Positions 15,656-36,328 of a DNA stretch of 64,000 nt are shown here, in pieces (the first letter of the stretch is position 1; every line of letters starts with the position of its first letter). A model generated the notes under the pieces. It was given only the letters and a program-made list of their open reading frames with translations. It was not told the DNA's origin and searched no databases. Origin of the DNA: Acidimicrobiales bacterium. Lineage in GTDB: Bacteria > Actinomycetota > Acidimicrobiia > Acidimicrobiales > UBA8592. Location of the stretch: the NCBI GenBank assembly GCA_965262315.1, contig CBDHFJ010000134.1:11534-75533 (forward strand), given 5' to 3'. A program made the translations under genes and the position numbers.

Positions 15656-16564
15656 CTAATCCATCGCATCCAACTGCGGCCGTGTGTGTGGTTCGATGTG
15701 GACGTGCACATCACGGACTCGCGGCATTTCGGCCAACAACTTGTTCTTGACGTCGTGTCCGATGCGGTGACCCTCATCGACCGTCAATCGTCCGTCGACT
15801 TCGACATGAATCTCGATGAAGTACTCGAGACCACTTTTTCGGACCCGCAGTTTTTCGACCTCATCGACTCCCGCGACGGTTTGAGCGATGAGCCGAACGT
15901 TTGCGACCATCGATTCGTCGGCCTGTTGATCCATCAACTCGCGTGCGGTCGAAAGAAACAGCTGGATCCCGGTGAACACAAGAATTCCGCACACACAAAA
16001 CGCGGCGATCGGATCGATGTAGGGCGCGGCGGCGCCCGTGTAGGGTGTGGCCAACAACGCGACCGCAACGACGCCCGATCCCAGCGCGTCGCTGCGGTGG
16101 TCCCAGGCTGTCGCTTTCAGCGCCGCGGAGTTCAGTCGTGTCGCGACACGGCGTGTGTACTGGTAGATCACTTCTTTGACGATCGCGCACGCCGCCGCGA
16201 TGAAGCCGGCGACAGCCGCGGGCGGTTTTAGTTCACCCCAAAATCGCTGAACTGTTTCGATCCCCAGTAGGCCGGCGCTAAAGGCTACCAACAGCGCGAC
16301 GCTCAGCCCGGCAATCGATTCGGCTTTGGTGTGTCCGTACGGATGATCTTCGTCTTCATCGATTTGCGCGACGCTGAGCGCACCTCGGACGGCCATCGCA
16401 CTTGCGACATCGCCGATCGAGTTGACGGCGTCGGCCAGTAGGGCAGAGGAACCTGTGACGACGCCGCCGACCAACTTCACGACGACCAACACCGAGTTGA
16501 CGCCGAGACCCCAAACGGCCGCCCGGCTGGCGTCCAGATAGACACGCTCGCGTCCGGCGATCAC
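15656..16564 (-). CDS. cation diffusion facilitator (CDF) family divalent-metal efflux transporter
   Basis: 302 aa. LLADAVNSIGDV and DEDHPYGHTKAESIAG are CDF signature regions. Six hydrophobic helices are followed by a C-terminal cytoplasmic domain. Confidence 0.85.
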   Translation of the reverse strand: MIAGRERVYLDASRAAVWGLGVNSVLVVVKLVGGVVTGSSALLADAVNSIGDVASAMAVRGALSVAQIDEDEDHPYGHTKAESIAGLSVALLVAFSAGLLGIETVQRFWGELKPPAAVAGFIAAACAIVKEVIYQYTRRVATRLNSAALKATAWDHRSDALGSGVVAVALLATPYTGAAAPYIDPIAAFCVCGILVFTGIQLFLSTARELMDQQADESMVANVRLIAQTVAGVDEVEKLRVRKSGLEYFIEIHVEVDGRLTVDEGHRIGHDVKNKLLAEMPRVRDVHVHIEPHTRPQLDAMD

Positions 16565-16585
16565 CGCTTCGTCACGAGGGGACTG

Positions 16586-18880: not shown

Positions 18881-19710
18881 TCCGCCGCCACGACGGTGCC
18901 GTCCAGCCGGGTCGATGCCGCAACCTCCTCGACCAGCAGGTCGAGCCGGAGGGGGGCCAGCCGGGGGACGGCCTGGCCGGCCTCCAGCCGCGCCATCTCC
19001 AACAACGAGTTCACGCCGCTTCCGGCCCGTTCGGTGGCCACCTGGATCTCCGCCAGGGACCGCTGGTACTCCCACGCCTCCCGTTCCCGCGACAACGCGT
19101 GGGAGGCAGACGCCTGGATCACCGCGAGCGGGGTCCGGAGCTCGTGGGCGGCGTCGGCGATGAAATCCCGTTGCTGGCCCATGGCCGCCTTCGCCGGCTC
19201 GAGTGACCGCCCTGCCAGGCGCCAGGCGACGAACGCGGCAGCGGCGATCATCCCGATGGCCGCCAGCGAGATGCGCCACTTCAGGCCCGAGATGTCGCTG
19301 ACGAACCCGTCCATCTCGATCGCGGCCACCAGGAAGTCGTCGTTCTGCAGGTGGCGGGTCCCGGCCATCCACGGCCCGTTCTGGTCGAACCGGAAGTAGT
19401 TCCGGCCCCCGTAGGAGGCGTTGGCATAGGCGAACAGCGGCGGTTCGACCCAGGTGTCACCGATCGGCTCGAAGCTCTCGTCAGCGGTGTTGACGTACCA
19501 GGTGTTGTTGGCGAGCCAGCCCTCAGGGGCGAGCTGCTCCAGGAAGACGTCCGAGATGAGTGTGTCCAGGTCGCGCTCGGCGGACTGGACGATCCGCTCC
19601 TCGCCCGCCCGCGCGGCGAGCACCGCCATCACGATCACCGCGACGGCCAACACCGCGGTGAACAGCACCGTCAGCTGGACCCGGGTCCGGGCGAGGTTCA
19701 TGCCCGACAA
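18875..19710 (-). CDS. sensor histidine kinase, 3' (HATPase) half missing because of the junction
   Basis: N-terminal TM, extracytoplasmic loop and second TM, then HisKA with AAHELRTPLAVI. No N/G1/G2 ATPase boxes. Meaningful sequence ends at ..RLDGTVVAADE; the rest of track ORF 18829..19710 (NHSPQIRRTLTKLWF) is read-through into the other genome. TTG 19710 or ATG 19701 start. Confidence 0.75.
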
Positions 19711-19732
19711 CGGTACGGGGTGGTCGGGGCGG

Positions 19733-20401
19733 TCATCCGGTCAACTGGTAGCCGACCCCGCGGACCGTGTCGATCGGCACCTCCACGCCGGACACGGCCA
19801 GCTTGCGCCGCAGATTGGCGATGTGGACGTCGACCACGTTCGACAGGCCGTCGTAGTTGGCGTCCCACACGTGCTCGAGCAACTCGGCGCGGGTCAGGAC
19901 GGCGCCCGGGCGCCGCATCAGGTACTCGAGGAGGCTGAACTCGCGTGCGGTCAGGGGCACGACGATCGCGCCCCGCCATGCCGTGTGTGACGCAGGGTCC
20001 AAGCGCAGGTCGCCGACCTCCAGGATCGGCCCCGTGGTGTCCGGCGGCCGCCGCAGCAGTGCCCGGACGCGAGCCGCGAGCTCCAGGTAGTCGAACGGCT
20101 TCGTCAGGTAGTCGTCGGCACCGGCATCGAGTCCGGCCACCTTGTCGTTCAGACCGTCCCGGGCCGTCAGCATCAACACCGGGACACGGACCTGGCGGTC
20201 CCGCAGGCGACGACACAGCGTGACCCCGTCCCCGTCGGGCAGACCGAGATCGAGGATCACCAGGTCGTAGTCGGCATGGTCGACCGCGTGGGATGCGCCG
20301 GCCGAGGTCGTCTCCAGATCGACGGCGTAGCCCTCCTCGGAGAGACCCCGGACGAGGATCTGTCCGAGCGCGATGTCGTCCTCGACCACCAGCAGCCGCA
20401 T
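19733..20401 (-). CDS. OmpR/PhoB-family response regulator
   Basis: 222 aa. MRLLVVEDD ... LVILDLGLPDGDG receiver domain, then the winged-helix LTAREFSLLEYLMRRPG..VDVHIANLRRKL..TVRGVGYQL. Confidence 0.9.
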   Translation of the reverse strand: MRLLVVEDDIALGQILVRGLSEEGYAVDLETTSAGASHAVDHADYDLVILDLGLPDGDGVTLCRRLRDRQVRVPVLMLTARDGLNDKVAGLDAGADDYLTKPFDYLELAARVRALLRRPPDTTGPILEVGDLRLDPASHTAWRGAIVVPLTAREFSLLEYLMRRPGAVLTRAELLEHVWDANYDGLSNVVDVHIANLRRKLAVSGVEVPIDTVRGVGYQLTG

Positions 20402-20486
20402 CGGACCATGGTGGCATCACGTCGATGAAGTGAACGTGAAGGCCGCCTTCACGATCACCTCACCGTGCCGTTCGTACGGTCGGCCC

Positions 20487-21749
20487 ATGGCATCGGAATC
20501 CGCTCGCATCGCCCACCTTCTCCGCCGCGCCACGTTCGGGCCCGTACCCGGTCAGGTCGAGGAGCTGACCGACGCAGGCTACGACGGGGTGCTCGCCGGC
20601 CTCCTGGGAGAGAGCCCCCTCCCCCTCTTCGACGACCCGGTCACCGACGTGCCCGACGTGGCGAACACCGGCGAGGGCGAGGACGAGCTGATCTCGTGGT
20701 GGATCGAACGGATGCGGTCGCCATGGTCGGGTCTGCACGAGAAGATGGTGTGGTTCTGGCACGGGCACTTCACCAGCTCGATCGAGAAGTGCCCGGCACG
20801 GGCGCTGGCCGGCCAACACCGACTGGTGCGGCGCCACGCGCTGGGCAACTTCCGCAGCCTCGCCCGGGAGATGGTGACTGACCCGGCGATGTTGATCTAC
20901 CTCGACGCCGCCGGGTCCCAGGGGTTCGCGCCGAACGAGAATCTGGCGCGCGAGCTGATGGAACTGTTCACGGTCGGGGCAGGCAACTACAGCGAGGCCG
21001 ACGTGAAGGCTGCCGCACGGGCGCTGTCGGGTTGGTGGGTCGACTGGGACGCGGCCGAGGCCGGCAGGGACGAGGGCGCCGCCTACCCCGGCGCGATCCG
21101 GTTCCTCGGCCGCCGCGGCCGATTCACGCCGGCCGAGATCGTCGACGCGTTGTGTGACCTCGACGCGTGTGCAACCCACGTGGCCGCGGCGCTGCACCGG
21201 TTCCTGGTCGGTACCGAGCCCGGCCCCGAACGGCTGGAGGAGCTCGGCGCGCTGTTCCGGGCGGAACGCCTGGAGATCCTTCCGCTGGTGGCCGAGATCC
21301 TGCGTTCGGCGGACTTCGAGGCGTCGATCCACGCTCGACCCCGCTTCCCCATCGAGTGGTTCGTCCATGTCGCCAACGTGTTGGAGGTACCCGAGATCAC
21401 CGAGGAACACCTCTGGGTGCTGGTCGAACTCGACCAGCTGCCCTTCCTCCCTCCGAACGTCGCCGGCTGGCCCGTTGGGGAGCGGTGGGTGTCGCCGAGC
21501 CTGGTCCTCGCACGGGGAACCGCGCTGTTCACGATCGCCGACTCGTTGGGAGACGACGGGCCGACCACCTTCGGGTTCGACGAGGACGACCCCATCCCCG
21601 AGGTCCTGCGCCGTTGCGGCATCCACGACCCGGCGGACGAGACGATCGCCGCGCTCGACGAGGCCTACTGGGCCCCCTTCGCGGCGGAGGAGGTCAACGC
21701 CCTCCTTGTCTACCTGGCCCTGAACTCACCCGATGTCGTCCTGGCCTGA
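20487..21749 (+). CDS. DUF1800 domain protein
   Basis: ORF 20373..21749 trimmed to ATG 20487 (MASESARIAHLLRRATFGP, the typical family N-terminus). Also has WFWHGHFTSS. Immediately precedes a DUF1501 gene, the canonical pairing. Confidence 0.8.
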   Translation: MASESARIAHLLRRATFGPVPGQVEELTDAGYDGVLAGLLGESPLPLFDDPVTDVPDVANTGEGEDELISWWIERMRSPWSGLHEKMVWFWHGHFTSSIEKCPARALAGQHRLVRRHALGNFRSLAREMVTDPAMLIYLDAAGSQGFAPNENLARELMELFTVGAGNYSEADVKAAARALSGWWVDWDAAEAGRDEGAAYPGAIRFLGRRGRFTPAEIVDALCDLDACATHVAAALHRFLVGTEPGPERLEELGALFRAERLEILPLVAEILRSADFEASIHARPRFPIEWFVHVANVLEVPEITEEHLWVLVELDQLPFLPPNVAGWPVGERWVSPSLVLARGTALFTIADSLGDDGPTTFGFDEDDPIPEVLRRCGIHDPADETIAALDEAYWAPFAAEEVNALLVYLALNSPDVVLA

Positions 21750-23201: not shown

Positions 23202-24122
23202 ATGATCGAAGTCACCCACCTCACCAAGCGCTACGGCCAGACCCTGGCCGTCAACGACCTCAGCTTCACCGTCGAGCCGGGCATCGTCACCGGCTTCCTG
23301 GGCCCCAACGGATCCGGCAAGTCCACAACGATGCGCATGATCCTCGGCCTCGACGCCCCCACCTCGGGCACGGCCACCGTCGGCGGCCGCCCGCTGGTGA
23401 CCCACGAACGGCCCCTCACCTCGTTGGGCTTCCTGCTCGACGCCGGCGCCGTGCACCCCACCCGGTCCGCCTACGACCACCTTCGGGCGTTGGCGGTCAC
23501 GAACAACATCCCGACCAGCCGGGTCGACGAGGTCCTCGACATCGTGGGCCTCGGTCAGGTCGGACGCCGCCGCAGCGGCGGCTTCTCGCTGGGCATGGGC
23601 CAGCGCCTCGGCATCGCCGCCGCCCTGCTCGGCGACCCCGAGGTCGTCATGTTGGACGAGCCGGTCAACGGCCTCGACCCCGAGGGCATCCTGTGGATCC
23701 GCCACCTCCTGCAGGACCTGGCCGCCGAAGGTCGCACCGTGTTCGTCTCGTCGCACCTGATGAGCGAGATGGAGCTCATGGCCGAGCACTTCGTCATCAT
23801 CGGCCAGGGCGCCCTCATTCGGGACATCTCCGCCGCCGACCTGCGCGCCATGGCGGTCGGCGAGAAGACCCACGTGCGGGCCGACCGCCTGAACGACCTG
23901 GTCTCGCTGATGCGGGCCGACGGTGTCGAAGTCGTCTCGGCCGACCGAGAGACCGTGAGCGTCAGCGGCCTCGACGCCGCAGCGATCGGCGCCATCGCCC
24001 GTGACCACGGCATCGCACTGACCTCGCTGATCCCCGAACAGCGCTCGCTCGAGGACGTCTTCATGAGCCTCACCGCCGATGCCGTCCAATACCACGGCGG
24101 CTCGAACCGGACGGCTGCCTGA
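23202..24122 (+). CDS. ABC transporter ATP-binding protein (ABC-2 exporter type)
   Basis: 306 aa. Walker A GPNGSGKSTT, signature-like FSLGMGQR, Walker B VVMLDEPVNGLDP. ATGA overlap with the permease gene. Confidence 0.9.
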   Translation: MIEVTHLTKRYGQTLAVNDLSFTVEPGIVTGFLGPNGSGKSTTMRMILGLDAPTSGTATVGGRPLVTHERPLTSLGFLLDAGAVHPTRSAYDHLRALAVTNNIPTSRVDEVLDIVGLGQVGRRRSGGFSLGMGQRLGIAAALLGDPEVVMLDEPVNGLDPEGILWIRHLLQDLAAEGRTVFVSSHLMSEMELMAEHFVIIGQGALIRDISAADLRAMAVGEKTHVRADRLNDLVSLMRADGVEVVSADRETVSVSGLDAAAIGAIARDHGIALTSLIPEQRSLEDVFMSLTADAVQYHGGSNRTAA

Positions 24123-25069
24123 TGACCGTCTCCGCCCCTTCCGCCCCTTCCTCCCCTCAGATGTCCACCCGAACCGACCACAGCGAGCACCCCATGACCA
24201 CCCTCACCCCCGTCCCCACCACGTCCACCCGGGCCACCCTGACCCCCGTCCCCACCGAGGCATCCATGTCGACCACCGCGGCTCCCCGCCCCACCACAGC
24301 GGGCAAGGTCCGCACCTGGAACGTCATCCGCAGCGAATGGATCAAGTTCTGGTCGGTCCGATCCACCTCCATCACCCTCATCGCCGCCGGCATCGCCACC
24401 GTGGCCTTCGGCATGATCTTCTCGGCGGTCGTCGACTCCGACGAGCAGGCCGGCCCCGCCGCCTTCCTCACCGACCCGGTGGATGTCGCCCTCGGCGGCA
24501 TCGGCCTGACCGAGATGGTGATCGGCGTCCTCGGCGTGATGTTCGTCGCCGGTGAGTACTCCACCGGGCTGATCCGCACGGCGTTCGCCTCGGTCGGTCG
24601 ACGAGGCCGGGTGATCCGGGCCAAGTCCGCCGTCATCGCCGCCTCGGTCCTCGGCGTGGCCCTCGTGGCCGTGACCGCCGCCATCGCCGCCGGTCAGGCC
24701 GTGTACGCAGGCAACGAACCCACCGTCCCGGTCACCGACGTCCTCGATGTCATCATGGGGACCAGCCTGTACCTGACCGGTATCGCCCTGATCGGCGTGG
24801 CCCTGGGCTTTCTGCTCCGGTCGACCGCAGCAGGCATCGGCACCCTGGTCGGCGGCGTCTTCATCGGCCCCAACCTGTTGAACCTGCTGCCCGACAGCGT
24901 GACCGACAGCTTCATGAAGTACCTGCCCTCCGAAGCCGGCTCTGCGATGATGACCCAGGTGTCCGATCCCGACCTGCTGAGCCGAGGCGCCGGCTATGCC
25001 GTCTTCGCCGCCTGGGTCGTCGGCCTCCTGACCCTGGCAACCGTGCTGGTCAATCGGCGAGATGCCTGA
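24122..25069 (+). CDS. ABC-2 family transporter permease with Thr/Pro-rich N-terminal extension
   Basis: 315 aa. The first ~75 aa are low-complexity, with TLTPVPT repeated twice. Then WNVIRSEWIKFWSVRST and six hydrophobic segments. The start could be an internal Met. Confidence 0.75.
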   Translation: MTVSAPSAPSSPQMSTRTDHSEHPMTTLTPVPTTSTRATLTPVPTEASMSTTAAPRPTTAGKVRTWNVIRSEWIKFWSVRSTSITLIAAGIATVAFGMIFSAVVDSDEQAGPAAFLTDPVDVALGGIGLTEMVIGVLGVMFVAGEYSTGLIRTAFASVGRRGRVIRAKSAVIAASVLGVALVAVTAAIAAGQAVYAGNEPTVPVTDVLDVIMGTSLYLTGIALIGVALGFLLRSTAAGIGTLVGGVFIGPNLLNLLPDSVTDSFMKYLPSEAGSAMMTQVSDPDLLSRGAGYAVFAAWVVGLLTLATVLVNRRDA

Positions 25070-26231
25070 CCGCCCGGCCTCGGTCCTGACCTGGCTGCGA
25101 GCCGACCCCCGACGGGTCGACGTGCTCCTGGCCCTGGTCACCGTCGGGCTGAGCGCCCTCCTGATCGGCAACGCCCCCCAGGACTTCGACACCGGCTGGC
25201 CCGAAGTGGCCGCCGGTGTCGGCGCGTTCCTCTTCGTCCTCGCCCGGCGCACCCAGCCCCTACTGCTCCTGATCGTCGGTCTGGCCTGGGGCGGCATCCA
25301 CGTCGTCGTCCTCGAGCGACCCACCCCGATCTTCTTCGCAATCCTGGTCCTGTTGGTGACGACCTGCATCCGCCTCACCCGCGGGCAGGCGATCCTCCTG
25401 GGTTCGGTGGTGGCCGGCCTCCTCTACACGTTCGGGCTGCTGGCCAACGACGCCGAGTTCGCCGACAGTCGGTCCGTGATCGGGATCGTCTGGGCGGCGG
25501 GCGCCGTCGGCATCGCCGACGCGGTCCGGTCGTGGCGGGACTACCGAGCATCCGCCGACGCGCAGGTGCGGTCAGCGGTGCTCGCCGCCGAGGCCGAAAC
25601 CCGCCAGCAGGTCAGTGAGGAGCGTCTCGCCATCGCCCGTGAGCTCCACGATCTCCTGGCGCACAACCTGTCGGTCATGAACGTCCAGACCGGCGCGGCG
25701 CTCCATCTCCTCCGCTCGGACCCGGACCAGGCCGAACAGTCCCTGACCGCCGCACGTGACGCTGGTCGCTCGGTCCTGGACGAGCTCCGCGAGCTCCTGG
25801 CCGTCCTGCGCCACCACGACGAGGACGCTCCCACCGCATCGCTGCCCACCGTCGATCAGCTCGACAGCCTGGTCGAGACCATGCGGGGGGCCGGGCTCGA
25901 TGTGACCTGGAGCCGCTCGGGCGCCCCGCGCCCCCTCGCGCCGGCCGTGTCCTTGGCGGCGTACCGGATCACGCAGGAAGCGCTCACGAACGCGGCCAAA
26001 CACGGGACGGGCACCGCCGACCTGGCCACGAACTGGGACCCGGTCGGCCTCACCATCAGTGTGGTGAACCCCGCAGGTGCCCGAGGCGGCACCGGGGCCG
26101 GGCACGGCCTCATCGGCATGCGCGAACGGGCCACGACCAACGGTGGACGCCTCAGTGCCGAGTCCACCGACGACCGATTCGCGGTGACCGCCTGGCTTCC
26201 GGCGGCCGCAGACCAGGAGACCCCGCCGTGA
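25062..26231 (+). CDS. NarL-class (HisKA_3) sensor histidine kinase
   Basis: 389 aa. Membrane N-terminal half, H-box IARELHDLLAHNLSVM, and ATPase end GHGLIGMRERATTNGGRL. Overlaps both neighbouring genes. Confidence 0.85.
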   Translation: MPDRPASVLTWLRADPRRVDVLLALVTVGLSALLIGNAPQDFDTGWPEVAAGVGAFLFVLARRTQPLLLLIVGLAWGGIHVVVLERPTPIFFAILVLLVTTCIRLTRGQAILLGSVVAGLLYTFGLLANDAEFADSRSVIGIVWAAGAVGIADAVRSWRDYRASADAQVRSAVLAAEAETRQQVSEERLAIARELHDLLAHNLSVMNVQTGAALHLLRSDPDQAEQSLTAARDAGRSVLDELRELLAVLRHHDEDAPTASLPTVDQLDSLVETMRGAGLDVTWSRSGAPRPLAPAVSLAAYRITQEALTNAAKHGTGTADLATNWDPVGLTISVVNPAGARGGTGAGHGLIGMRERATTNGGRLSAESTDDRFAVTAWLPAAADQETPP

Positions 26232-26896
26232 GCATCCGAGTGGTTCTCGTCGACGACCAGGCCCTCATCCGCGCCGGGTTCCGAGCCATCATCGACTCGG
26301 CGGCCGACCTGGAGGTCGTCGGCGAGGCAGACGACGGCGCGCAGGCCGTCGACCTGGTGCGCTCCGCTCGGGCCGACGTGGTCCTCATGGACATCCGGAT
26401 GCCCGGTCGCGACGGCATCGAGACCACCCGCGCCATCACCGACGACGATGACCTCGCAGGCGTCCGAGTGATCGTGCTGACCACCTTCGAACTGGACGAG
26501 TACGTCGTCGCGGCGATGGGCGCAGGGGCCAGCGGCTTCCTGGACAAGGGTGTCGACCCCGCCGTCCTGCTCGACGCCATCCGAGTCGTCGCCGCCGGCG
26601 ACGCCCTGCTCACCCCCAAGGCCACCCGGGCGCTGCTGGCATCCCTCGGCGACGAACCGACACCGAGCGTCGTGGACGAGGAGACCGTCGGGCACCTCAC
26701 CGCCCGAGAGCGCGAGGTCGTCGGCCTCGTCGGGCGAGGCCTGTCCAACGACGAGATCGCCGACGCCCTCTTCCTGTCGCCGCTGACGGCCAAGACCCAC
26801 GTCAGCAGGGCGATGACCAAGCTGCACGCGCGCGATCGGGCACAGCTGGTGGCGCTTGCCTTCAAGACGGGCCTGACCCGGCTCGACGAGCTCTGA
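26228..26896 (+). CDS. LuxR/NarL-family response regulator
   Basis: 222 aa. GTGA start overlap. IRVVLVDDQALIR ... VVLMDIRMPGRDG receiver domain, then the HTH LTAREREVVGLVGRGLSNDEIADALFLSPLTAKTHV. Confidence 0.9.
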   Translation: MSIRVVLVDDQALIRAGFRAIIDSAADLEVVGEADDGAQAVDLVRSARADVVLMDIRMPGRDGIETTRAITDDDDLAGVRVIVLTTFELDEYVVAAMGAGASGFLDKGVDPAVLLDAIRVVAAGDALLTPKATRALLASLGDEPTPSVVDEETVGHLTAREREVVGLVGRGLSNDEIADALFLSPLTAKTHVSRAMTKLHARDRAQLVALAFKTGLTRLDEL

Positions 26897-27066
26897 ACAC
26901 GGCGGTCCTCGGCCGCCCAGACGCTTCGACAGGTCGTCGACAGGGAGCGCCCTGATCGGTCGACGCCTCAAGAACCCTCCGCGTGGGCCGACAGGGTAAG
27001 CCTCAGCGGATTCGGCGGCCACGTCCCCCGGGGAACCACCCCAAGCCGTCGCAGCGGAGGGACACA

Positions 27067-27999
27067 ATGAAGAATCGCAGCATGCTCGGCGTCATCGCCG
27101 CCGTTCTCTTGGCCCTCGTGGGTGGCCTGCTCCTGTGGCAGAACTCCGACGACCCGGAATCGGAAGCGGCCGTCGAAGAGCCGGTCGAGGAGACTCAGGT
27201 GTTGGTCGCCAAGCGCGACATCAACGCCGGTGAGTCCGCCTCCACGCTCAGCGACAACGCGTTCGCCTTCGTCGAGCTGGTCTCGGTCCCGGTGGACCAG
27301 GTCGAGCTCGGCGCACTGACCAGCGTGGACGACCTCGCCGACCTGGCGATCGGGCGCAACGTCCTCGCAGCCACCGTCCCGCTCGGCGCTCAGATCGCCG
27401 TCGACGACTTCGTCGTCCCGGGTGAGCAGGAGCTGTCGGCCCTCCCCGACGTGGACCCGAACCTGTTCGAGGTCACCGTGGCGCTGGAGTCTCAGCGTGC
27501 CCTCGGTGGCAACATCCGCCCGGGCATGATCGTGGCCGTCGTCGGCTCCTATGACCTCGGTCCCGAGGTTGCCGAGGGCAAATCCACATCGGTGGTCGTC
27601 GCCGAATCGACGCTGGTGACCAACGTGCAGACCGAGCGTCTCTTCACCACCGAGCAGCTGAGCAACGATCCGCTCGCACCGAGCCTCGCTCCCACCAGCC
27701 GACTGTTCATCACCTTCGGCGTACCGGTCGAGGACCTCGAGAAGCTCGCCCACGTCGCCGAGTTCGGACGCATCTGGCTCGCCCGCCAAGGCGACGAGGC
27801 CACCGTCGAAGGTTCCGAGCTGAAGGTCGTCGACAACGTCGAGGTCTCCCTCGACCCCGACGCCCCCTCCAACGAGCTGCGGGTCGATCCGTTCGACCCG
27901 GACCGGGTCCTGGCCCTCGTCGAAGGTGAAGAGGGCGCAGCGGAGGGCGGCGAGAGCGCTGGAGCGAGCTTCGGCGGGCTTGACCTCGGAGACAGCTGA
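27067..27999 (+). CDS. cpaB: Flp pilus assembly protein CpaB (SAF + RcpC-like)
   Basis: ORF 26983..27999 trimmed to ATG 27067 (GGAGGGA RBS). MKNRSMLGVIAAVLLALVGGLLLW is the TM anchor and VLVAKRDINAGES the SAF-type block. Acidic C-terminal tail. Confidence 0.75.
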   Translation: MKNRSMLGVIAAVLLALVGGLLLWQNSDDPESEAAVEEPVEETQVLVAKRDINAGESASTLSDNAFAFVELVSVPVDQVELGALTSVDDLADLAIGRNVLAATVPLGAQIAVDDFVVPGEQELSALPDVDPNLFEVTVALESQRALGGNIRPGMIVAVVGSYDLGPEVAEGKSTSVVVAESTLVTNVQTERLFTTEQLSNDPLAPSLAPTSRLFITFGVPVEDLEKLAHVAEFGRIWLARQGDEATVEGSELKVVDNVEVSLDPDAPSNELRVDPFDPDRVLALVEGEEGAAEGGESAGASFGGLDLGDS

Positions 28000-28000
28000 C

Positions 28001-29626
28001 GTGGCACTGGGGCGACGCAACAAGCGCGACGAGGTCGGAGCCTCGGCCGACGCCGCCGACGACGGCCCCACGCCGCCGTCGACCTCCCTCCCCGTCGCCG
28101 ACGACGGCGGGGACCAGACCGCCGAGCCGTCGGGCCTCCCCGAGGCACCGGAGCCGGCGAGCACATGGAACGCCACCACCGACCAGTCGGTCGAGGCGGT
28201 CCCGGTCTCGCCCACGGAGCCGACAGCCGAGACCCCAGTGGCCGACGGCGCCCTCCCGGTGCCGACCGACAATCACCCCGAGCTCGTCGAGGACAACGAC
28301 GATCTCCTGCCGGTGCGGTTGGAGTCCCCGCTGCTCCCGCCGCACCTCCAGGAGCTCAAGGTCAAGGCGCAGGAAGCGCTGATCGAACGGATGGGCGCCC
28401 GGCTGTACGACCGGACGCTCACCGAGGAGCAGATCGAGTCCTACGTCGTCACCGAGTTGGGTGGCTGGCTGTTCGAGGTCGATGCCCGCATCACCGACGT
28501 CGAACGGGAGCAGCTGACCGCTGAGCTGCTCAACGACGTGCTCCGGCACGGCCCCATCGAACCCTTCCTCGAGGACGACGGTGTCTCCGAGATCATGGTC
28601 AACGGGCTGGCCCACATCTACGTGGAACGCAACGGCAAGCTCGTGCGGACGCAGTCGCAGTTCCTCACCGAGGCTCATCTGCGCCAGGTCATCGAGCGCA
28701 TCGTGTCCAAGGTCGGCCGTCGGATCGACGAGTCGAGCCCCATGGTCGATGCTCGGCTTCCCGACGGATCCCGCGTCAACGCCGTCATCCCACCCCTGGC
28801 GGTCGACGGGCCGAGCCTGACGATCCGCAAGTTCTCCAAGGACGCGCTGGGCGTCGACGACCTGGTGTCGTTCGGCACCCTGTCGCCGATGTCGGTGGAT
28901 TTCCTGTCCGCCTGCGTTCGGGGCCGCATGAACGTGCTGGTCTCGGGCGGCACCGGCACCGGCAAGACGACGCTGTTGAACGTCCTGTCCAACTTCATTC
29001 CCGACGACGAGCGCATCGTGACCCTCGAGGACGCCGTCGAGCTCCAGCTCCGCCAGGAGCATCTGGTGCGCCTGGAGAGTCGCCCGCCCAACGTGGAGGG
29101 CAAGGGCCAGATCACCATCCGCGATCTGGTGCGCAACTCGCTGCGCATGCGCCCCGACCGGGTGATCATCGGCGAGTGCCGCGGTGGCGAGGCGCTGGAC
29201 ATGCTCCAGGCGATGAACACGGGCCACGACGGCTCGCTGTCCACCCTGCACGCCAACGGACCCCGAGACGCCCTCGCCCGCCTCGAGACGCTCTGCCTCA
29301 TGGCCGGCATGGACCTCCCCGTCCGAGCGATCCGGGAACAGATCGCCTCGGCCGTCGACCTGTTGGTCCACGTCTCGCGACTCCGCGACGGCACGCGTCG
29401 CGTCACCCACATCAGCGAAGTGGTCGGCATGGAGAGCGACACGATCACGCTGAGCGACATCTACACGTTCGACTTCGACGCCGGGCTCGACATCGAGGGT
29501 CGCTACGCCGGCCATCTCCGGCCCACCGGTCTCATGCCGATGCTGACCACGAAGTTGCGCGAGCACGGCGAGGACGTCGACATGTCGATGTTCGAACCCG
29601 ACGAGGACATGGTCGGAGGCAACTGA
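28001..29626 (+). CDS. cpaF: CpaF/TadA secretion ATPase with acidic/Pro-rich N-terminal extension
   Basis: GTG 28001 lies one nt after the cpaB stop. Walker A GGTGTGKTTLLN, then RVIIGECRGGEALDMLQAMNTGHDGSLSTLHAN. The first ~110 aa are low-complexity (D/P/T/E-rich). Confidence 0.9.
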   Translation: MALGRRNKRDEVGASADAADDGPTPPSTSLPVADDGGDQTAEPSGLPEAPEPASTWNATTDQSVEAVPVSPTEPTAETPVADGALPVPTDNHPELVEDNDDLLPVRLESPLLPPHLQELKVKAQEALIERMGARLYDRTLTEEQIESYVVTELGGWLFEVDARITDVEREQLTAELLNDVLRHGPIEPFLEDDGVSEIMVNGLAHIYVERNGKLVRTQSQFLTEAHLRQVIERIVSKVGRRIDESSPMVDARLPDGSRVNAVIPPLAVDGPSLTIRKFSKDALGVDDLVSFGTLSPMSVDFLSACVRGRMNVLVSGGTGTGKTTLLNVLSNFIPDDERIVTLEDAVELQLRQEHLVRLESRPPNVEGKGQITIRDLVRNSLRMRPDRVIIGECRGGEALDMLQAMNTGHDGSLSTLHANGPRDALARLETLCLMAGMDLPVRAIREQIASAVDLLVHVSRLRDGTRRVTHISEVVGMESDTITLSDIYTFDFDAGLDIEGRYAGHLRPTGLMPMLTTKLREHGEDVDMSMFEPDEDMVGGN

Positions 29627-31128
29627 TGCATCAATCACGTCAGCGCCGGCGGAGCCTGGCGAAGCCGGCCGTGGTGCTCAGCACCGCCGCCGTGTTCACC
29701 TCGCTGCTGACCGCTCCTGCGTTCGCGCAGGACGTCGCGCAGGAGACGGACCCCGAGCTGTCCGAGCTCCCGGCCGGCCCACCCGAGACCGACACCAGCA
29801 CCGCACCCGAGGACCCCGGTGGCCTCGACTTGAGCGGCGTGGTCGAGACCGACGACGAAGGCAACATCATCTGGAACGTCGAGGCGGACACCGTCGAGGC
29901 CGACGAGGTGGTCGTGGAGCCGACCCCGATCCCCGACGCCGGCCTCACCGGCACCGGCGATGTGGACGCACCACCGACGGACGAGCCCGAAGCCGACAGT
30001 GGCGGTGGCCTGGACGAAGCTCGGGCCGGAACCGGCAACGGCATGCTGCTGGTGTTGGCGATCGGTGGCGGTGTCCTGCTCCTCGCCACGGCGGGCTACT
30101 TCCTCGTGCGCATGCGCAAGCAGCGCCAGGAAGAACTCGACCAGGTCGAAGAGGTCATCGACCCGTTGGCCAACGAGCGCCTCGCCGGCGAGTTCCTCGA
30201 ACCCGAGTACGCAGGTGCCGCCGAGGCCGGAGCCTACGAAGCGGGCGGTGCCGCGTACGCGCAGTACACCGACCCCAGCTACGCGGCGACCAACGCCATG
30301 GCGGCCTCCGAAGCGCCCCAGAACAAGCTCGACCAGATCCGCATGTCCATGGCGGACCTCGCGGACAAGGGTCTCCAGGACTCTGGCCAGGCCCACGTCG
30401 TCGCCAAGAAGCTCGAGTCCGCCGGCTCGCAGATGCGTCCGGGCGAGTGGCTCGTCATGGCGATCGCCGGCACCATCGGAGCGTTCGCCGGCGGCACGTT
30501 CCTGTTCGGCTGGCTGATCGGCGCCTTCGTCGCCGTCGTCACCGCCGGACTGTTCTGGACGTACCTGTCGCTGCGGCAGAGCGCTCGCCAGAAGGCCTTC
30601 GCCGAGGATCTGCCGGAGACCCTCCAGCTCATCGCCGGCAGCCTCCGCGGCGGCACGTCGATGATCCAGGCGATCCAGACCGTGGCCGACGAGGCCGACG
30701 CACCGACCAGCGAAGAGTTCCAGCGCATCATCACCGAGACCCGCCTCGGTCGAGATCTGGCCGTGAGCTTCCGAGACCTCTCCGAGCGCATGGGGAGCAG
30801 CGACTTCGAGTGGGTCGTCACCGCGATCGAGATCCACCGCGAGGTGGGCGGCGATCTGGCCGGGATCCTCGATCGGGTGTCGGACACGATCCGGGCCCGC
30901 AACCGGGTCCGCGGTCAGGTCAAGGCACTCAGCGCCGAGGGCAAGATGTCCGGGATCATCCTGTTCATCCTGCCCCCGGGCATGGTCGGCGCCATCTCAC
31001 TCCTGAATCGCGAGTACTTGAACGAGATGCTCGACACCACCGAGGGCCAGGTGATGTTGATCATCTCCGGTGTCCTCCTGATCATCGGCGGCGCGTGGCT
31101 GAAGCGCCTGAGCCGGTTCGTGTACTGA
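29626..31128 (+). CDS. tadB: TadB-like T2SSF platform protein fused to a ~270-aa N-terminal signal-peptide/acidic/TM module
   Basis: ATGA overlap with the cpaF stop (29624-29628). Residues 1-35, MHQSRQRRRSLAKPAVVLSTAAVFTSLLTAPAFAQD, form a signal peptide. An acidic ~100-aa segment, the TM GMLLVLAIGGGVLLLATAGYFLV and an A/Y/E-rich linker follow. The TadB core then has LPETLQLIAGSLRGGTSMIQAI. Confidence 0.8.
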   Translation: MHQSRQRRRSLAKPAVVLSTAAVFTSLLTAPAFAQDVAQETDPELSELPAGPPETDTSTAPEDPGGLDLSGVVETDDEGNIIWNVEADTVEADEVVVEPTPIPDAGLTGTGDVDAPPTDEPEADSGGGLDEARAGTGNGMLLVLAIGGGVLLLATAGYFLVRMRKQRQEELDQVEEVIDPLANERLAGEFLEPEYAGAAEAGAYEAGGAAYAQYTDPSYAATNAMAASEAPQNKLDQIRMSMADLADKGLQDSGQAHVVAKKLESAGSQMRPGEWLVMAIAGTIGAFAGGTFLFGWLIGAFVAVVTAGLFWTYLSLRQSARQKAFAEDLPETLQLIAGSLRGGTSMIQAIQTVADEADAPTSEEFQRIITETRLGRDLAVSFRDLSERMGSSDFEWVVTAIEIHREVGGDLAGILDRVSDTIRARNRVRGQVKALSAEGKMSGIILFILPPGMVGAISLLNREYLNEMLDTTEGQVMLIISGVLLIIGGAWLKRLSRFVY

Positions 31129-31141
31129 GGAGGCGGCCCAG

Positions 31142-32026
31142 ATGAACCTCATGTTCGGAATTCTCGCCTTCGGCGGCGCCGCGATGGTGCTGGTGTGGGC
31201 GGTGAGCGGTCAGCGCCAGACGGCAGAGGGCCTGACGGAGACCAACGTCCATCAGCGCTCGCTGGACACGTCGGGCCTCCAGCGCCTGATGCTGCCGATC
31301 CTGACCAAGCTCGGTCGCCACATCGCCCGCATGCTGCCCCCCGGGCGGCTCCAAGCGATGCGGCGCCGCATCATCCACGCCGGCAAGCAGATGACGTGGA
31401 ACGTCGAGAAGGCGATGGCCCTCAAGGCGCTCGGCACCATCCTCGGTGTCAGCGGCGCCCTGTTCATCCTCTCGCAGCAGCGCACGAACCTGACGATGCT
31501 GCTCGCGGCGCTGGTGGTGGGCATCGGCTTCTTCGGTGTCGACTTCTACCTGGACAAGGCCGCCGGTGCCCGGCAGCTGGAGATCCAGCAGGCGCTGCCC
31601 GACATCCTCGACCAGATCTCGGTGTGCGTGGAGGCCGGCCTCGGCTTCGACGCTGCGCTCCATCGGGCGTCGATGAGCAACGACAACCCGCTCGGTGACG
31701 AGCTCGGTCGCACACTCCAGGACATCCGCCTGGGCGTGCCACGCACCCAGGCCCTCCACGGTCTGCTCGACCGCACCGACGTCCAGGACCTGCGCCTGTT
31801 CGTCCGGGCGCTCGTCCAGGCCGAGCGCTCCGGCATCCCGATCGCTCGAGTGCTCCAGGTCCAGTCCGACGAGGTCCGCGAGAAGCGGCGTCAGGCTGCC
31901 GAGGAGCGCGCCATGCGCCTGCCCGTGATGCTGATCATGCCGCTGGTGTTGTGCATCCTGCCGTCGCTGTTCACGGTGATCATGGGCCCTGCGGTCCTGC
32001 GCATGATCCGAGAGGGCGCCGTCTGA
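31142..32026 (+). CDS. tadC: TadC-like T2SSF platform protein
   Basis: 294 aa. [32 protein letters not shown] is a typical T2SSF block. TM helices at both ends. Confidence 0.85.
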
Positions 32027-33039
32027 TGAGGTGGCTCGGCCGCATGGCCGAGCTGACCCATGGCAGGGACGGCCGGCAGACGAATCGAGAGGGTCGCGAT
32101 CAGCGTGGGGCCGGTGCCGTCGAGGCAGGCATCGTGTCGCTGCTCGTCTTCGTGCTGTTCTTCGGCATCATCGAGTTCGGTCTGCTGTGGCGCAACATCA
32201 ACGTCACCGGAGACGCCGCTCGGGAAGGCGCGATCGAGGCATCCCAGCTCACGCGCGTGAACACGTACCACACCGACGCGCTCGACCGGATGCAGCTGCG
32301 GCTCGACGGCATGCCCCGCGGGGACGCGTATCGGGTCGTGATCTTCAAGGCCGACCCCGCCACCGCCGAACCCCTCTCGGGGGAGGCGACCGCGAGCTGT
32401 CTGACCGACTGCTACCGCTGGGACTGGGACTCGGGTGCGCAGACCTGGGTCCTCCAGGGTGGCGCGAGCTGGCCGGCGGCCACCCACGACACCTGCGACT
32501 ACGTGGGCGTCACCATCTACGCCCGCTACGACTGGCTGACCGGCTTCTTCGGTCCCGACCGCGATGTCGTGGAGACGCAGGTCAAGCGGATGGAGCCGGC
32601 ACCGGGCGACGTGAACTGCCCCACCGCCGCGGCGCCGACGGTCGAACCGACCCCCACGCCGCCGCCGACCCCGACACCGACCCCCACCCCCACCCCCACG
32701 CCGACACCGACGCCCACGCCGACACCGACGCCGACACCGACGCCGCCGGCCACCCCCACGCCGACCCCGACCAGCACGCCGGACCCGTCGTGGACACCGA
32801 CGCCGACGCCGACCATCACGCCGACGCCGACACCGACCGCGACCCGCACTCCACGCCCGACGCCGTCTGCCCGCCCGACCCGGCGGCCAACCGTGACACC
32901 CACACCGACCCGGACGCCCACGCCGGGTCCGACGGCAACCCCGCGACCCACAGCGACCCCTCGGCCGACGCCGACGCCGACGCCGACCCGAACACCCACG
33001 CCGACGCCCTTCCCCACCCCACCTCCGGTGGACACGTGA
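32026..33039 (+). CDS. tadE: TadE-like pseudopilin with ~135-aa C-terminal Pro/Thr-rich tail
   Basis: ATGA overlap with the tadC stop. [25 protein letters not shown] is the TadE N-terminal motif. The globular part contains [10 protein letters not shown]. Then (TP)n-type sequence runs to the stop at 33037-33039. Confidence 0.75.
32620..33036 (+). repeat. imperfect ccg/acc/acg (Pro-Thr coding) low-complexity repeat
   Basis: Reads as [26 protein letters not shown]...[13 protein letters not shown]. It is open in several frames on both strands, which explains several long artefactual ORFs in the track. Confidence 0.9.
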
Positions 33040-33632
33040 TGCGACCGAGACCATCCCTTCGAACCCTCCGGTCCCGTCGACGAGAACACGGCCAGCGGGG
33101 CGCCATCGCCGTCGAGTTCGCCATCGCGAGCTCGCTGCTGGTCATGCTGTTCTTCGGCATCCTGGAGCTCGGCATGTTGCTGCGGACACGTACGGTCATC
33201 ACCGACGCGTCCCGAGAGGCAGCCCGTGTGGCAGCAGCACTCCCCCGCACGCCGGACTGGCAGAACAACGCGCTCGCGGCCGTCAACGGCGTGATCGCCG
33301 TGGAGAACTCCGAACTCATCGACTACGTGGTGATCTACCGGGCCGACCCGAACACCGGGCTCCCGCTGAGCGGCGAGGACATCGAGGCCTGCGTGACCGA
33401 CTGCTGGCGCTACGAGTGGGTCAGCGGCGGTTTCGAACAGAAGCTCGGCGCCGCGTGGTCCCACAACGACCAGTCGGCCTGCGGCGGCCTGTCGGACACC
33501 GACTGGCTCGCGGTGTACGTACGCGGCCACCACGACGGGCAGCTCCCCTTCCTGAACCTGGGTCGGTCCTTCTCCGACACCACGTGGATGCGCCTCGAAC
33601 CCATGGAACTGGGGGTGCAATGTCGACCCTGA
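33039..33632 (+). CDS. tadE: TadE-like pseudopilin (paralogue without tail)
   Basis: ATGA overlap at 33037-33041. RGAIAVEFAIASSLLVMLFFGILELG, then CVTDCWRYEW. 197 aa. Confidence 0.75.
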   Translation: MRPRPSLRTLRSRRREHGQRGAIAVEFAIASSLLVMLFFGILELGMLLRTRTVITDASREAARVAAALPRTPDWQNNALAAVNGVIAVENSELIDYVVIYRADPNTGLPLSGEDIEACVTDCWRYEWVSGGFEQKLGAAWSHNDQSACGGLSDTDWLAVYVRGHHDGQLPFLNLGRSFSDTTWMRLEPMELGVQCRP

Positions 33633-35404
33633 CCATCGCGGTGCGTCGCCGACTCGAGCAGGCCCGGACCCGCCTCGCCGACGACGGCGTCGCCCAGGGT
33701 GACGGCGGCTATGTCATGGTGCTCCTGGCGCTCACGTTCACGCTGCTCTTCGCCTTCGCCGGGTACTCCGTCGACGCCGGCAACTGGAACCTGCACCGCA
33801 ACGAGACCCGCACCGCGGCCGAGGCCGCAGCACTCGGAGGAGTGGCCTTCCTGCCGGACGACCTCGTCAGCGCGCAGGCCACCGCGGAACAGATCGCCCG
33901 CTTCCACGGCTACGACGACAGCGATGCCGACACCACGGTGGCGGTCTCGCTCGGCGCGGGCAACAACCAGCTCGAGGTGACCATCACCAAGGACGTCTCC
34001 AACTACTTCGTCCGCGCGATCGGCATGAACACGACGGCGATCACCGCCTCGGCCACCGCCGAGTTCGAACAGCCGGTGGAGATGGGCAGCCCCGAACACA
34101 TCCTGGGCAACGACCCCGAGAGCGGGTTCTCGCCGGACTACTGGCTGAGCATCGCGGCGCGGAACGTGCGAAAGGAACTCGGCGACCGATTCAACACCCG
34201 GCGGTGCACCAGCGGCGCGACCTACGGCTGCAGCGGCACCTGGAACAGCGGCGACGAGTACGACAACAGCGGCTACAAGTACGCGGTCCGAGTCACCGAC
34301 ACCAGCGTGCCCCTCCGCATCCAGATCTTCGACCCGGCCTGGGTGTGGACGGGCTCGACCTGCAACATCCCGAACTGGCCGACTGCCCCGGAGATCACAC
34401 ATCTCCAGTCGATCGACGACGGTTCGTACCCGGAGATCCCCGTGGGCTGGTACGACGACGCAGCATCCCGGTTCGCCGGCGGCGACACGGCCTGGTGCAG
34501 CGGCGACGACCGACCTGGCTCCAACGGGCCCGCGACCCGTTTCACGGTCCGCCTGCCGGACGACTCGCCCTGGGACGACAACGACAACACGCGGATCAAC
34601 ATCGCGGGCTGTCGACGCGAGACCTTCCCGGCCTACACCCCGACCTCGATCTACGCCGCGCCCACCGAGTCGATCTTCGAACTGCTCGACCCGCTGTCGG
34701 CGTCGACCGACAGCTGGGAGATCGACCTGACCGACGACGACTTCCCGTTCGCCGAGGTGTTCCGCCGCTGGGTGACGATCTGTGAGATCCCCGTCGGCAG
34801 CCCCTTCCTTCGCGAGGGCGACTACATCGTGCAGGTCCAGACCACCGACAACACCGCCGGCCAGAACCGCTTCTCGCTTCGGGCCGGGCCCCCGAGCGGC
34901 GCCAACGGCGTCCTCGACGTGGGGCAGGCCACGTTCTCGCGGGGCCGGCTCCCCATCTACGCCAACACCGGCTCCGCCGACATCCAGTTCTTCCTCGCGC
35001 GAGTCCCCCCGAGCTCGGGCGAACGCATCCTCGAAGTGTCGTTCTTCGACGTCGGCGATGCCGGCGCCGCCGGCATCCTGTCCATCGTTCCACCTCCGGG
35101 GTCGCTGGTCACCGGCGCCTTCACCGACTGCGACTTCACGCTGTCGGGCACGGGTCCGCTGGTCGACAGCAACTGCGCCGTCTCGGGGGTGCTGGACACG
35201 AACGGCTTCGGCGAACAGCTCGTCGAGGCCACGGTGACCATCCCGTCACAGAACGACGCGGTGAACCCGTACCTCTGCAACGTCAACGACCCGAACGACT
35301 GCTGGATCACGGTGCGGGCCCAGTTCGCGGGCGGCCTGACCGACGCCACCACCTGGACCGCCAACCTCATCGGCGACGCCGTCCGCATCATCGACGACGA
35401 CTGA
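33620..35404 (+). CDS. tadG: TadG-like (TadE/G-type N-terminus) large pilus-associated protein
   Basis: ATG 33620 overlaps the previous gene by 13 nt. GDGGYVMVLLALTFTLLFAFAGYSVDAGNWNLHRNETRTAAEAAALGG is a TadE/G-like N-terminal block. It is followed by ~500 aa of beta-rich sequence. Confidence 0.65.
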   Translation: MSTLTIAVRRRLEQARTRLADDGVAQGDGGYVMVLLALTFTLLFAFAGYSVDAGNWNLHRNETRTAAEAAALGGVAFLPDDLVSAQATAEQIARFHGYDDSDADTTVAVSLGAGNNQLEVTITKDVSNYFVRAIGMNTTAITASATAEFEQPVEMGSPEHILGNDPESGFSPDYWLSIAARNVRKELGDRFNTRRCTSGATYGCSGTWNSGDEYDNSGYKYAVRVTDTSVPLRIQIFDPAWVWTGSTCNIPNWPTAPEITHLQSIDDGSYPEIPVGWYDDAASRFAGGDTAWCSGDDRPGSNGPATRFTVRLPDDSPWDDNDNTRINIAGCRRETFPAYTPTSIYAAPTESIFELLDPLSASTDSWEIDLTDDDFPFAEVFRRWVTICEIPVGSPFLREGDYIVQVQTTDNTAGQNRFSLRAGPPSGANGVLDVGQATFSRGRLPIYANTGSADIQFFLARVPPSSGERILEVSFFDVGDAGAAGILSIVPPPGSLVTGAFTDCDFTLSGTGPLVDSNCAVSGVLDTNGFGEQLVEATVTIPSQNDAVNPYLCNVNDPNDCWITVRAQFAGGLTDATTWTANLIGDAVRIIDDD

Positions 35405-35509: not shown

Positions 35510-36328
35510 ATGGTCGAGGGGCACGCAGAACTCAACTCGGACGGCGAGGCTGCCGAAGATCCAGAGGTGACGAGTCTCACCACCGATCCCACCGTGATGC
35601 CGGGCATGCCCGATGCCGCCACGATCGCCCGATGCGAGCTCACCGTCGTGATGCCCGTCTACAACGAAGAGGCCAGCCTCGGCGCCTGCGGCGCCTCCTG
35701 GACCGACATGCTGGACGGACTCGGCGTCGACTACCGGCTCCTCGTGATCAACGACGGCTCCAAGGACTCGACGGCCGACGTGTTGACCGACCTCGCCCGC
35801 CACGAACGAGTGCTGGGCGTGACCAAGCCGAACGAGGGCCACGGGCCCACGATCCTGCGCGGCTACCGCCTGGGTGTCGCCACCTCCGAGTGGGTCTTCC
35901 AGGTCGACAGCGACGACGAGATCCCCGCCTCGGCGTTCCCTGCCGTGTGGGAAGCACGCTCGGGCGTGGACGCCGTCTTCGGGCGGCGGGTCGGCCGCGA
36001 TCAGCGCGCGGACCGCAAGCTGATCTCGAAGGTGGCGGCGCTCACGGCCCGCGTCCTGCTCCGCGGCCGGGTCACCGACGTGAACGTGCCGTTCCGCCTG
36101 ATGCGGAGCGAGGTCCTGGGCCCGGTGCTGACGTCGTTGCCCGCCGACACCTTCGCCCCGAACGTCGTGATCGCGGGCGCGTTGGGCCGGGACCGGGACC
36201 GCTTCGCCGAGGTCGACGTTCCCCACCAGGACCGCGCCGCCGGTCAGGTGTCCATCGTCGGGTGGGGCGCCATCAAGGCGGCCATCCGGTCGTTCCGCCA
36301 GACGGTCCGTCTCGCTCGAAGCGTCTGA
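35510..36328 (+). CDS. family 2 glycosyltransferase (polyprenol-phosphate sugar synthase-like)
   Basis: 272 aa. LTVVMPVYNEEASL ... LLVINDGSKDSTADVL ... VDSDDE (DxD-like). The start could be a downstream Met. Confidence 0.8.
   Translation: MVEGHAELNSDGEAAEDPEVTSLTTDPTVMPGMPDAATIARCELTVVMPVYNEEASLGACGASWTDMLDGLGVDYRLLVINDGSKDSTADVLTDLARHERVLGVTKPNEGHGPTILRGYRLGVATSEWVFQVDSDDEIPASAFPAVWEARSGVDAVFGRRVGRDQRADRKLISKVAALTARVLLRGRVTDVNVPFRLMRSEVLGPVLTSLPADTFAPNVVIAGALGRDRDRFAEVDVPHQDRAAGQVSIVGWGAIKAAIRSFRQTVRLARSV

Follow-up and report, generated by a model that had tools for sequence, protein, structure and literature searches.

A conserved TadZ-less tad operon in an Acidimicrobiales genome and its probable use of Flp and TadV encoded elsewhere

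The canonical loci for Tad (type IVc) pili are flp-tadV-rcpCAB-tadZABCDEFG of Aggregatibacter actinomycetemcomitans and pilA-cpaA-F of Caulobacter crescentus. The secretin (RcpA/CpaC) is a diderm component, and TadZ is a ParA-like hub for polar localisation. Here we report on a tad operon of a marine actinobacterium whose locus holds neither of these, nor a major pilin or a prepilin peptidase. It occupies positions 27067-35404 of a stretch of 64,000 nt, hereafter the window, on contig C134 (G000:C134) of an Acidimicrobiales metagenome-assembled genome (MAG; 4.96 Mb, 184 contigs, 86.6% complete, 6.9% contamination). A first-pass annotation, made from the letters of the window, had described a machine with a motor, a platform and three pseudopilin-like proteins but no fibre subunit, and had offered two explanations: either the missing parts are unlinked, or this is a variant apparatus built around decorated TadE and TadG proteins. 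We find the missing parts other than the secretin at other sites of the same genome and favour the view that the operon is a conserved, TadZ-less Tad system that draws on Flp and TadV from elsewhere.

The window operon fits a known pattern, and it is ordinary because a split arrangement has already been documented in Actinobacteria. The tad-1 cluster of Micrococcus luteus (Mlut_07500-07560) has the order tadA-tadB-tadC-tadE/F-tadG, and its pilin genes are of the TadE/F type only (Angelov et al. 2015, PMC4322843). Flp is encoded there in a second cluster, tad-2, the single tadV is unlinked, an arrangement called 'typical' of other actinobacteria, and TadZ is missing altogether; Flp filaments and transformation depend on both clusters, for a reason that the authors left unexplained (PMC4322843). 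In the Kil system of Myxococcus xanthus, TadE/F/G homologues form priming tip complexes with a large TadG-like protein of modular C-terminal domain as the proposed tip backbone, and the major pilin and the sets of minor pilins, which act as interchangeable 'Tips', can be encoded apart from the machinery (PMC12075869). Prepilin peptidases are sometimes shared between systems, and many actinobacterial Tad-like systems fail strict models, the usual components being unidentifiable (Denise et al., PMC6668835). Among the papers listed by our literature search, none was relevant to the tad loci of Acidimicrobiia specifically.

Scored with Pfam and NCBIfam profiles, the operon consists of seven intact genes on the plus strand, namely cpaB, tadA, tadB, tadC, two tadE genes and tadG (Table 1), and the identities first proposed for them hold throughout. 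CpaB has a transmembrane segment at its N-terminus and an acidic tail at its C-terminus, and a GGAGG lies 5' of its ATG. The secretion ATPase TadA carries an acidic, low-complexity N-terminal extension of ~110-160 aa. The platform is split over two separate proteins, TadB and TadC, each with one T2SSF domain (PF00482); in TadB this domain is preceded by a signal peptide, an acidic extracytoplasmic region of ~120 aa and an extra transmembrane segment. TadE1 combines a class-III leader (G/AGAVEA) and a pilin-like head with a Pro/Thr-rich C-terminal tail of ~130 aa, TadE2 has the leader GQRG/AIAVEF, and a motif scan places Glu at +5 in both. The first-pass annotation was right about the coordinates and the tightness of the junctions, but its label 'ATGA' should read TGATG. 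This motif marks three 1-nt overlaps (29624-29628, 32024-32028 and 33037-33041); tadB and tadC are separated by a 13-nt gap, tadE2 and tadG overlap by 13 nt, and cpaB and tadA stand 1 nt apart and thus leave no room for a TadZ gene between them. The seven genes are one translationally coupled operon.

Table 1 Features of the window operon and of related loci in the same genome (positions without a contig name are those of the window)
Feature	Position	Strand	Description
cpaB/rcpC-like	27067..27999	+	310 aa; PF16976 RcpC 4e-07, 30.4 bits against a cut-off of 28.8; NCBIfam TIGR03177 CpaB 7e-11, below cut-off
tadA/cpaF secretion ATPase	28001..29626	+	541 aa; PF00437 T2SSE 5e-65; GTG start
tadB platform protein	29626..31128	+	500 aa; PF00482 T2SSF 5e-22, residues 334-458
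tadC platform protein	31142..32026	+	294 aa; PF00482 T2SSF 9e-22 plus PF19359 DUF5936
TadE-like minor pilin 1 (TadE1)	32026..33039	+	337 aa; PF07811 TadE 3e-09
TadE/TadF-like minor pilin 2 (TadE2)	33039..33632	+	197 aa; PF07811 2e-12; NF041390 TadE_Rv3655c weak
TadG-like large minor pilin	33620..35404	+	594 aa; PF13400 Tad 7e-06
Second tad locus (L008)	C150:41154-49475		flp-flp-cpaB-tadZ-tadA-tadB-tadC, then KaiC/DnaB_C-like ATPase
Near copy of the C150 locus	C51:3-3479 and C9:11094-13386		cpaB-tadZ-tadA / tadB-tadC, broken at contig ends; no flp seen
Mycobacterium tuberculosis-type tad locus	C105:182964-186535		CpaE-like gene, tadA, tadB, tadC, DUF4244 pilin, tadE
Orphan tadE/tadG-type clusters	C1:51879-55788; C50:8194-11551; C23:~19300-20700; C154:~16000-16800		No ATPase or platform nearby
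Sole A24 peptidase	C56:18405-19103		232 aa, TadV-type, without methyltransferase domain
Intergenic region 5' of cpaB	26897..27066	.	170 bp; no open reading frame with a pilin motif
Glycosyltransferase family 2 (GT2)	35510..36328	+	PF00535 3e-15; directly 3' of tadG

Neither a Flp pilin nor TadZ, an A24 peptidase or a secretin is encoded within the operon, as had been noticed at first reading, or in the rest of the window. The motif scan covered the 64 kb in six frames, stop to stop, for class-III leaders (G-xxxx-E-[YF] plus a hydrophobic run) and returned the two TadE genes and nothing else. Whole-genome Pfam searches gave no match to Flp_Fap, DUF4244 or Peptidase_A24 on contig C134, and a custom Flp hidden Markov model (HMM; --max) found no Flp-like open reading frame (ORF) on that contig, the sole C134 row being the TadE2 frame at E = 2.6. 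The motif scan, the Flp_Fap and DUF4244 searches and the custom HMM rule out a flp gene hidden in the locus. With the C150 TadZ as query, phmmer gave one borderline match on C134 (C134:90437-91621, E = 0.001), which lies outside the window. The secretin family PF00263 has no match in the whole genome, an absence that is expected in a monoderm actinobacterium.

The genome has at least four tad loci, the window locus among them, as mapped by phmmer, Pfam and ORF inspection; four genes encode TadA and many encode TadE. Whole-genome HMM searches for the Flp/Fap pilin and the A24 peptidase and a phmmer search for TadZ found all three on other contigs: two flp genes and a tadZ on C150, a further tadZ on C51, a DUF4244 pilin on C105 and the A24 peptidase on C56. 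These missing parts are therefore unlinked, not absent from the genome, which supports the first of the two explanations in the first-pass annotation. The tandem flp genes on C150 score 55.2 and 45.1 bits with Flp_Fap; the TadB of that locus (712 aa) begins with a signal peptide and contains a von Willebrand A domain, and its string of TadB, TadC and ATPase recurs on C9. The DUF4244 pilin on C105 is 64 aa long (G/QTTAEY, 29.2 bits). The A24 gene overlaps the stop of aroE within the string alaS-ruvX-mltG-aroE-A24-aroB, the neighbours being named by eye from their translations. ComEC is also encoded in the genome.

The survey of related tad loci, in relatives labelled Acidimicrobiales or Acidimicrobiia, shows that the order without flp and TadZ is conserved in near relatives. 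The same seven genes in the same order, without either, are found at loci L028, L054 and L056, and in part at L027, L029 and L055; full-length TadG homologues with 57-88% identity end the corresponding operon in the former three and in part in the latter three. The upstream neighbours vary (DUF1800/DUF1501 in L056, ferrochelatase in L054) and the GT2 and topoisomerase genes downstream recur; therefore cpaB is the true left boundary of the operon, with no flp ahead of it. The ratio of nonsynonymous to synonymous substitution (omega) is 0.08-0.23 for all seven genes against both L028 and L056, at a synonymous divergence (dS) of ~0.55-0.7, and the operon is therefore maintained by selection. Beyond the near relatives, among 120 sampled Acidimicrobiales genomes, the flp-less gene order cpaB-tadA-tadB-tadC-tadE-tadG occurs in two other families (G034:C111 and G077:C58). 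Flp genes stand on other contigs in all five of the five near relatives with the window-type operon, typically as a tandem pair as on C150, and G034 has five or more Flp matches. Among the genomes surveyed, none was found that has the window locus type and no Flp at all. What the first-pass annotation had named as counting against its reading, that such an architecture is the norm of the clade with flp, tadV and tadZ at other sites, is essentially what we observe: the architecture recurs in the clade and has a precedent in tad-1 of M. luteus (PMC4322843).

The tad loci compared here can be divided into two types. Type A (L040, L041, L049, L050 and L053) has tadZ between cpaB and tadA, usually a tandem flp pair and often a divergent tadE-tadG pair. 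In L050 (G017:C74:1296-2819), a TadZ-bearing locus, the TadA match is broken by a TGA and a TAG and may be a pseudogene or reflect a sequencing error. Type B comprises the window locus, L028, L035, L046, L044, L045, L047, L048 and L052; its TadA has an N-terminal extension, and TadZ is absent from every type-B locus examined. The nine type-B TadA proteins cluster in the TadA tree with support 87/87. Some members have in cis what the window locus lacks: in L044 (G107) and L045 (G034) a flp gene lies ~90-160 bp upstream of cpaB, at the position that corresponds to the intergenic region 26897-27066 of the window, and in L052 (G052) an A24 peptidase gene stands directly 3' of tadC with flp 2.3 kb away. 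The TadZ-less subtype is therefore a Flp- and TadV-dependent Tad system, in which the linkage of flp is a variable trait and the absence of TadZ is a trait of the subtype. The second explanation in the first-pass annotation, a variant fibre-less apparatus built on the decorated TadE and TadG proteins, is thus not favoured, since other type-B loci have flp or A24 in cis and no near relative with this operon lacks flp at another site. In their mature form, the C150 Flps share 45-67% identity with Flps that adjoin type-B loci, compared with 23-46% for those that adjoin type-A loci of other genomes; these are short sequences, and the figures give a weak hint that the C150 Flps could serve a type-B machine.

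Placed beside the described systems, the window locus shares with tad-1 of M. luteus an actinobacterial host, the lack of a secretin and, judged by the described gene order, the series tadA-tadB-tadC-tadE/F-tadG. In both cases Flp, TadZ and TadV are missing from the cluster, Flp is encoded at a second tad locus and a single tadV is unlinked. The pilin-like genes are in both of the TadE/F type only, with the leaders G/xxxxE[FS] in tad-1. The window operon differs in that cpaB/rcpC is its first gene, that its TadG has 594 aa, that its TadE is Pro/Thr-rich and that its TadB is extended at the N-terminus; furthermore, TadZ, which M. luteus lacks, is encoded at other tad loci of its host. With the canonical Tad/Flp loci it has in common TadA/CpaF, the split TadB/TadC platform, RcpC/CpaB, minor pilins of the TadE/TadF/TadG type and TadV-type leaders, but flp, tadV, tadZ, the secretin RcpA/CpaC, TadD and RcpB are not in the locus and the host is monoderm. 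Unlike in the canonical loci, other sites of the genome provide flp, tadV and tadZ.

The likeness to Kil lies in a major pilin gene remote from those of the machinery, in a large TadG-like protein with a C-terminal module and in the scattered TadE/F/G-like sets, for which the orphan clusters on C1, C50, C23 and C154 offer a comparison. Kil belongs to a diderm with a secretin, serves predation and combines several tips with one machine, whereas the genome studied here encodes multiple machines and multiple tips. The Rv3654c-Rv3660c type of Mycobacterium tuberculosis (TIGR03815/03816/03819, 'helicase/secretion neighbourhood') is likewise actinobacterial and without a secretin. Although TIGR03819, the TadA family of this type, is the top NCBIfam match of the window TadA, the score of 340.8 bits falls below the cut-off of 373, and a genuine locus of this type is present on C105; the window locus is a different subtype. 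A large ORF at C105:189467-191833 looks helicase-like by eye.

We conclude, with a probability of roughly 0.68, that the window contains a conserved Tad operon without TadZ, made up of motor, platform, CpaB and a TadE/TadE/TadG tip set, which relies on Flp and on the one TadV from other sites of the genome. The operon would supply the TadA motor, the split inner-membrane platform of TadB and TadC, CpaB as an alignment or conduit protein and the three minor pilins. The only TadV-type A24 peptidase of the genome, on C56, would mature these minor pilins as well as Flp from elsewhere, the likeliest source of which is probably the tandem pair on C150. A trimer of the two TadE proteins and TadG may form a priming tip complex on the TadB/TadC platform, beneath which TadA would polymerise Flp through the CpaB ring and the cell wall. 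A secretin would not be required in a monoderm, and TadZ is presumably dispensable for the TadZ-less subtype.

Several observations weigh against this conclusion. The C150 locus has its own complete motor and platform, and the use of its Flps by the window machine is a proposal on our part. Support for the TadZ-less clade in the TadA tree is moderate; apart from four solid pairs the clade is a polytomy, which places the window locus neither with the flp-bearing nor with the flp-less type-B loci. G077, which is 75% complete and has the same locus type, yielded no Flp above the cut-off, and a looser search gave an incomplete Flp-like match at a contig end. The contig that carries the window is chimeric upstream of ~18.9 kb, the MAG has a completeness of 86.6% and a contamination of 6.9%, and the unassembled 13% could include a flp gene dedicated to the operon. 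That the other contigs belong to the same organism rests on binning, with which their GC content of 69-70% agrees. Finally, the reading of the flp-less cluster preferred in the M. luteus study was an accessory role other than fibre formation (PMC4322843).

This accessory role is the first of the alternatives to be weighed, and we regard it as unlikely for the window operon. It holds that the locus builds only a short TadE/TadE/TadG pseudopilus or a wall-spanning structure that guides or primes the Flp pilus of the TadZ-bearing locus, the two loci being interdependent; for tad-1 of M. luteus this corresponds to hypothesis (ii). The contents of the loci are indeed complementary, since C150 has flp and tadZ but, like C51/C9, no minor pilins in cis, and the window locus has minor pilins but no flp. 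Purifying selection acts on the flp-less form, which is conserved in several families. M. luteus needs both clusters, and TadE/F escaped detection in its sheared filaments (PMC4322843); the long Pro/Thr-rich tail of TadE1 could span the wall. However, the orphan tadE-tadG-tadE clusters on C1, C50, C23 and C154 could equally serve the TadZ-bearing loci, in other genomes TadZ-bearing loci have tadE-tadG alongside (L040, L041), and the flp or tadV found in cis at other type-B loci argues that the motor and platform of the subtype handle Flp. In full, the proposal would make the operon a dedicated primer or conduit machine of TadE/TadE/TadG only, with the Pro/Thr-rich TadE spanning the wall and an obligatory coupling to the TadZ-bearing Flp machine, which we hold to be a doubtful prospect. 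If it were true, two motors would share the work of monoderm Tad pilus biogenesis, in an arrangement conserved across the Acidimicrobiales, and the dependence of M. luteus on two loci would be explained.

We attach little probability to a second alternative, in which a dedicated flp and/or tadZ is unassembled or mis-binned, or the operon is a decaying remnant that has recently lost flp. The state of the MAG, 86.6% complete and in 184 contigs, leaves room for the former, as do the tiny Flp genes that lie at contig ends in other MAGs (G077:C296 and G125:C549). Yet the operon is embedded in >45 kb of contiguous actinobacterial sequence without a gap at the upstream boundary of cpaB, and the identical flp-less boundary occurs with differing upstream neighbours in L028, L054 and L056; decay is at odds with seven intact genes and an omega of 0.08-0.23. 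Least credible is the idea that a TadE-like protein, for example the 197-aa TadE2, is the major subunit of a non-Flp Tad filament: the class-III leaders of both TadE proteins, with Glu at +5, and the several lineages without flp in cis would accord with it, but multi-copy TadE-type genes occur beside Flp-bearing loci in this bacterial order, other type-B loci carry Flp, and to our knowledge no TadE-type protein is known as a major pilin.

In the AlphaFold model of TadG (pLDDT 88.7) a long hydrophobic N-terminal helix leads into a small beta head, and the C-terminal module (~400 aa) is beta-rich and has many conserved Cys residues. Compared with the PDB by Foldseek, the model gave zero matches at E <= 1e-3, and only weak resemblances to carbohydrate-binding modules and jelly rolls. 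Those of the 53 TadG homologues that bear a name are TadG-related. The GT2 gene that follows tadG in the window is also directly 3' of tadG in close relatives (L055:2484-3245 and L056:12018-12740), and a link between this enzyme and the Pro/Thr-rich tail of TadE1 through glycosylation is a possibility.

The flanks of the operon are of unrelated function, as the first reading of the window had it and as family matches on both sides bear out. Upstream lie DUF1501, an ATP-binding cassette (ABC) transporter, a HisKA_3 kinase and a LuxR-type response regulator; downstream the GT2 gene is accompanied by a TetR regulator and gyrA/gyrB-like topoisomerase genes. The ABC transporter, kinase and LuxR-type regulator that stand between DUF1501 and cpaB in the window (23202-26896) are absent from L056, an 88%-identical relative in which DUF1800-DUF1501 stands immediately 5' of cpaB (L056:757-3380). 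GC content is 57-59% over positions 1-~18,900 of the window (G000:C134 1-~30,400) and rises to ~70% (68-72%) across the rest of the contig, and the tad operon and its immediate flanks lie wholly within the actinobacterial part. Elsewhere in the assembly, two ORFs (C15:5993-6616 and C81:747-1370) are identical in displayed sequence and length; together with the near-duplicate of the C150 locus on C51/C9 they suggest strain redundancy or contamination in the MAG, for which marker genes give a contamination of 6.9%.

Under our preferred reading, what looks like a fibre-less Tad operon belongs to a multi-locus system and is not a new apparatus. A requirement for flp, tadZ and tadV in cis would lead annotation pipelines to under-call such actinobacterial loci or mis-class them as 'generic'. 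The survey defines a TadZ-less tad subtype in the Acidimicrobiales in which Flp and TadV are variably linked and scattered tip clusters occur in the same genomes. It also provides a comparative set for the question raised by M. luteus, namely why a flp-less tad cluster is needed beside a flp-bearing one.

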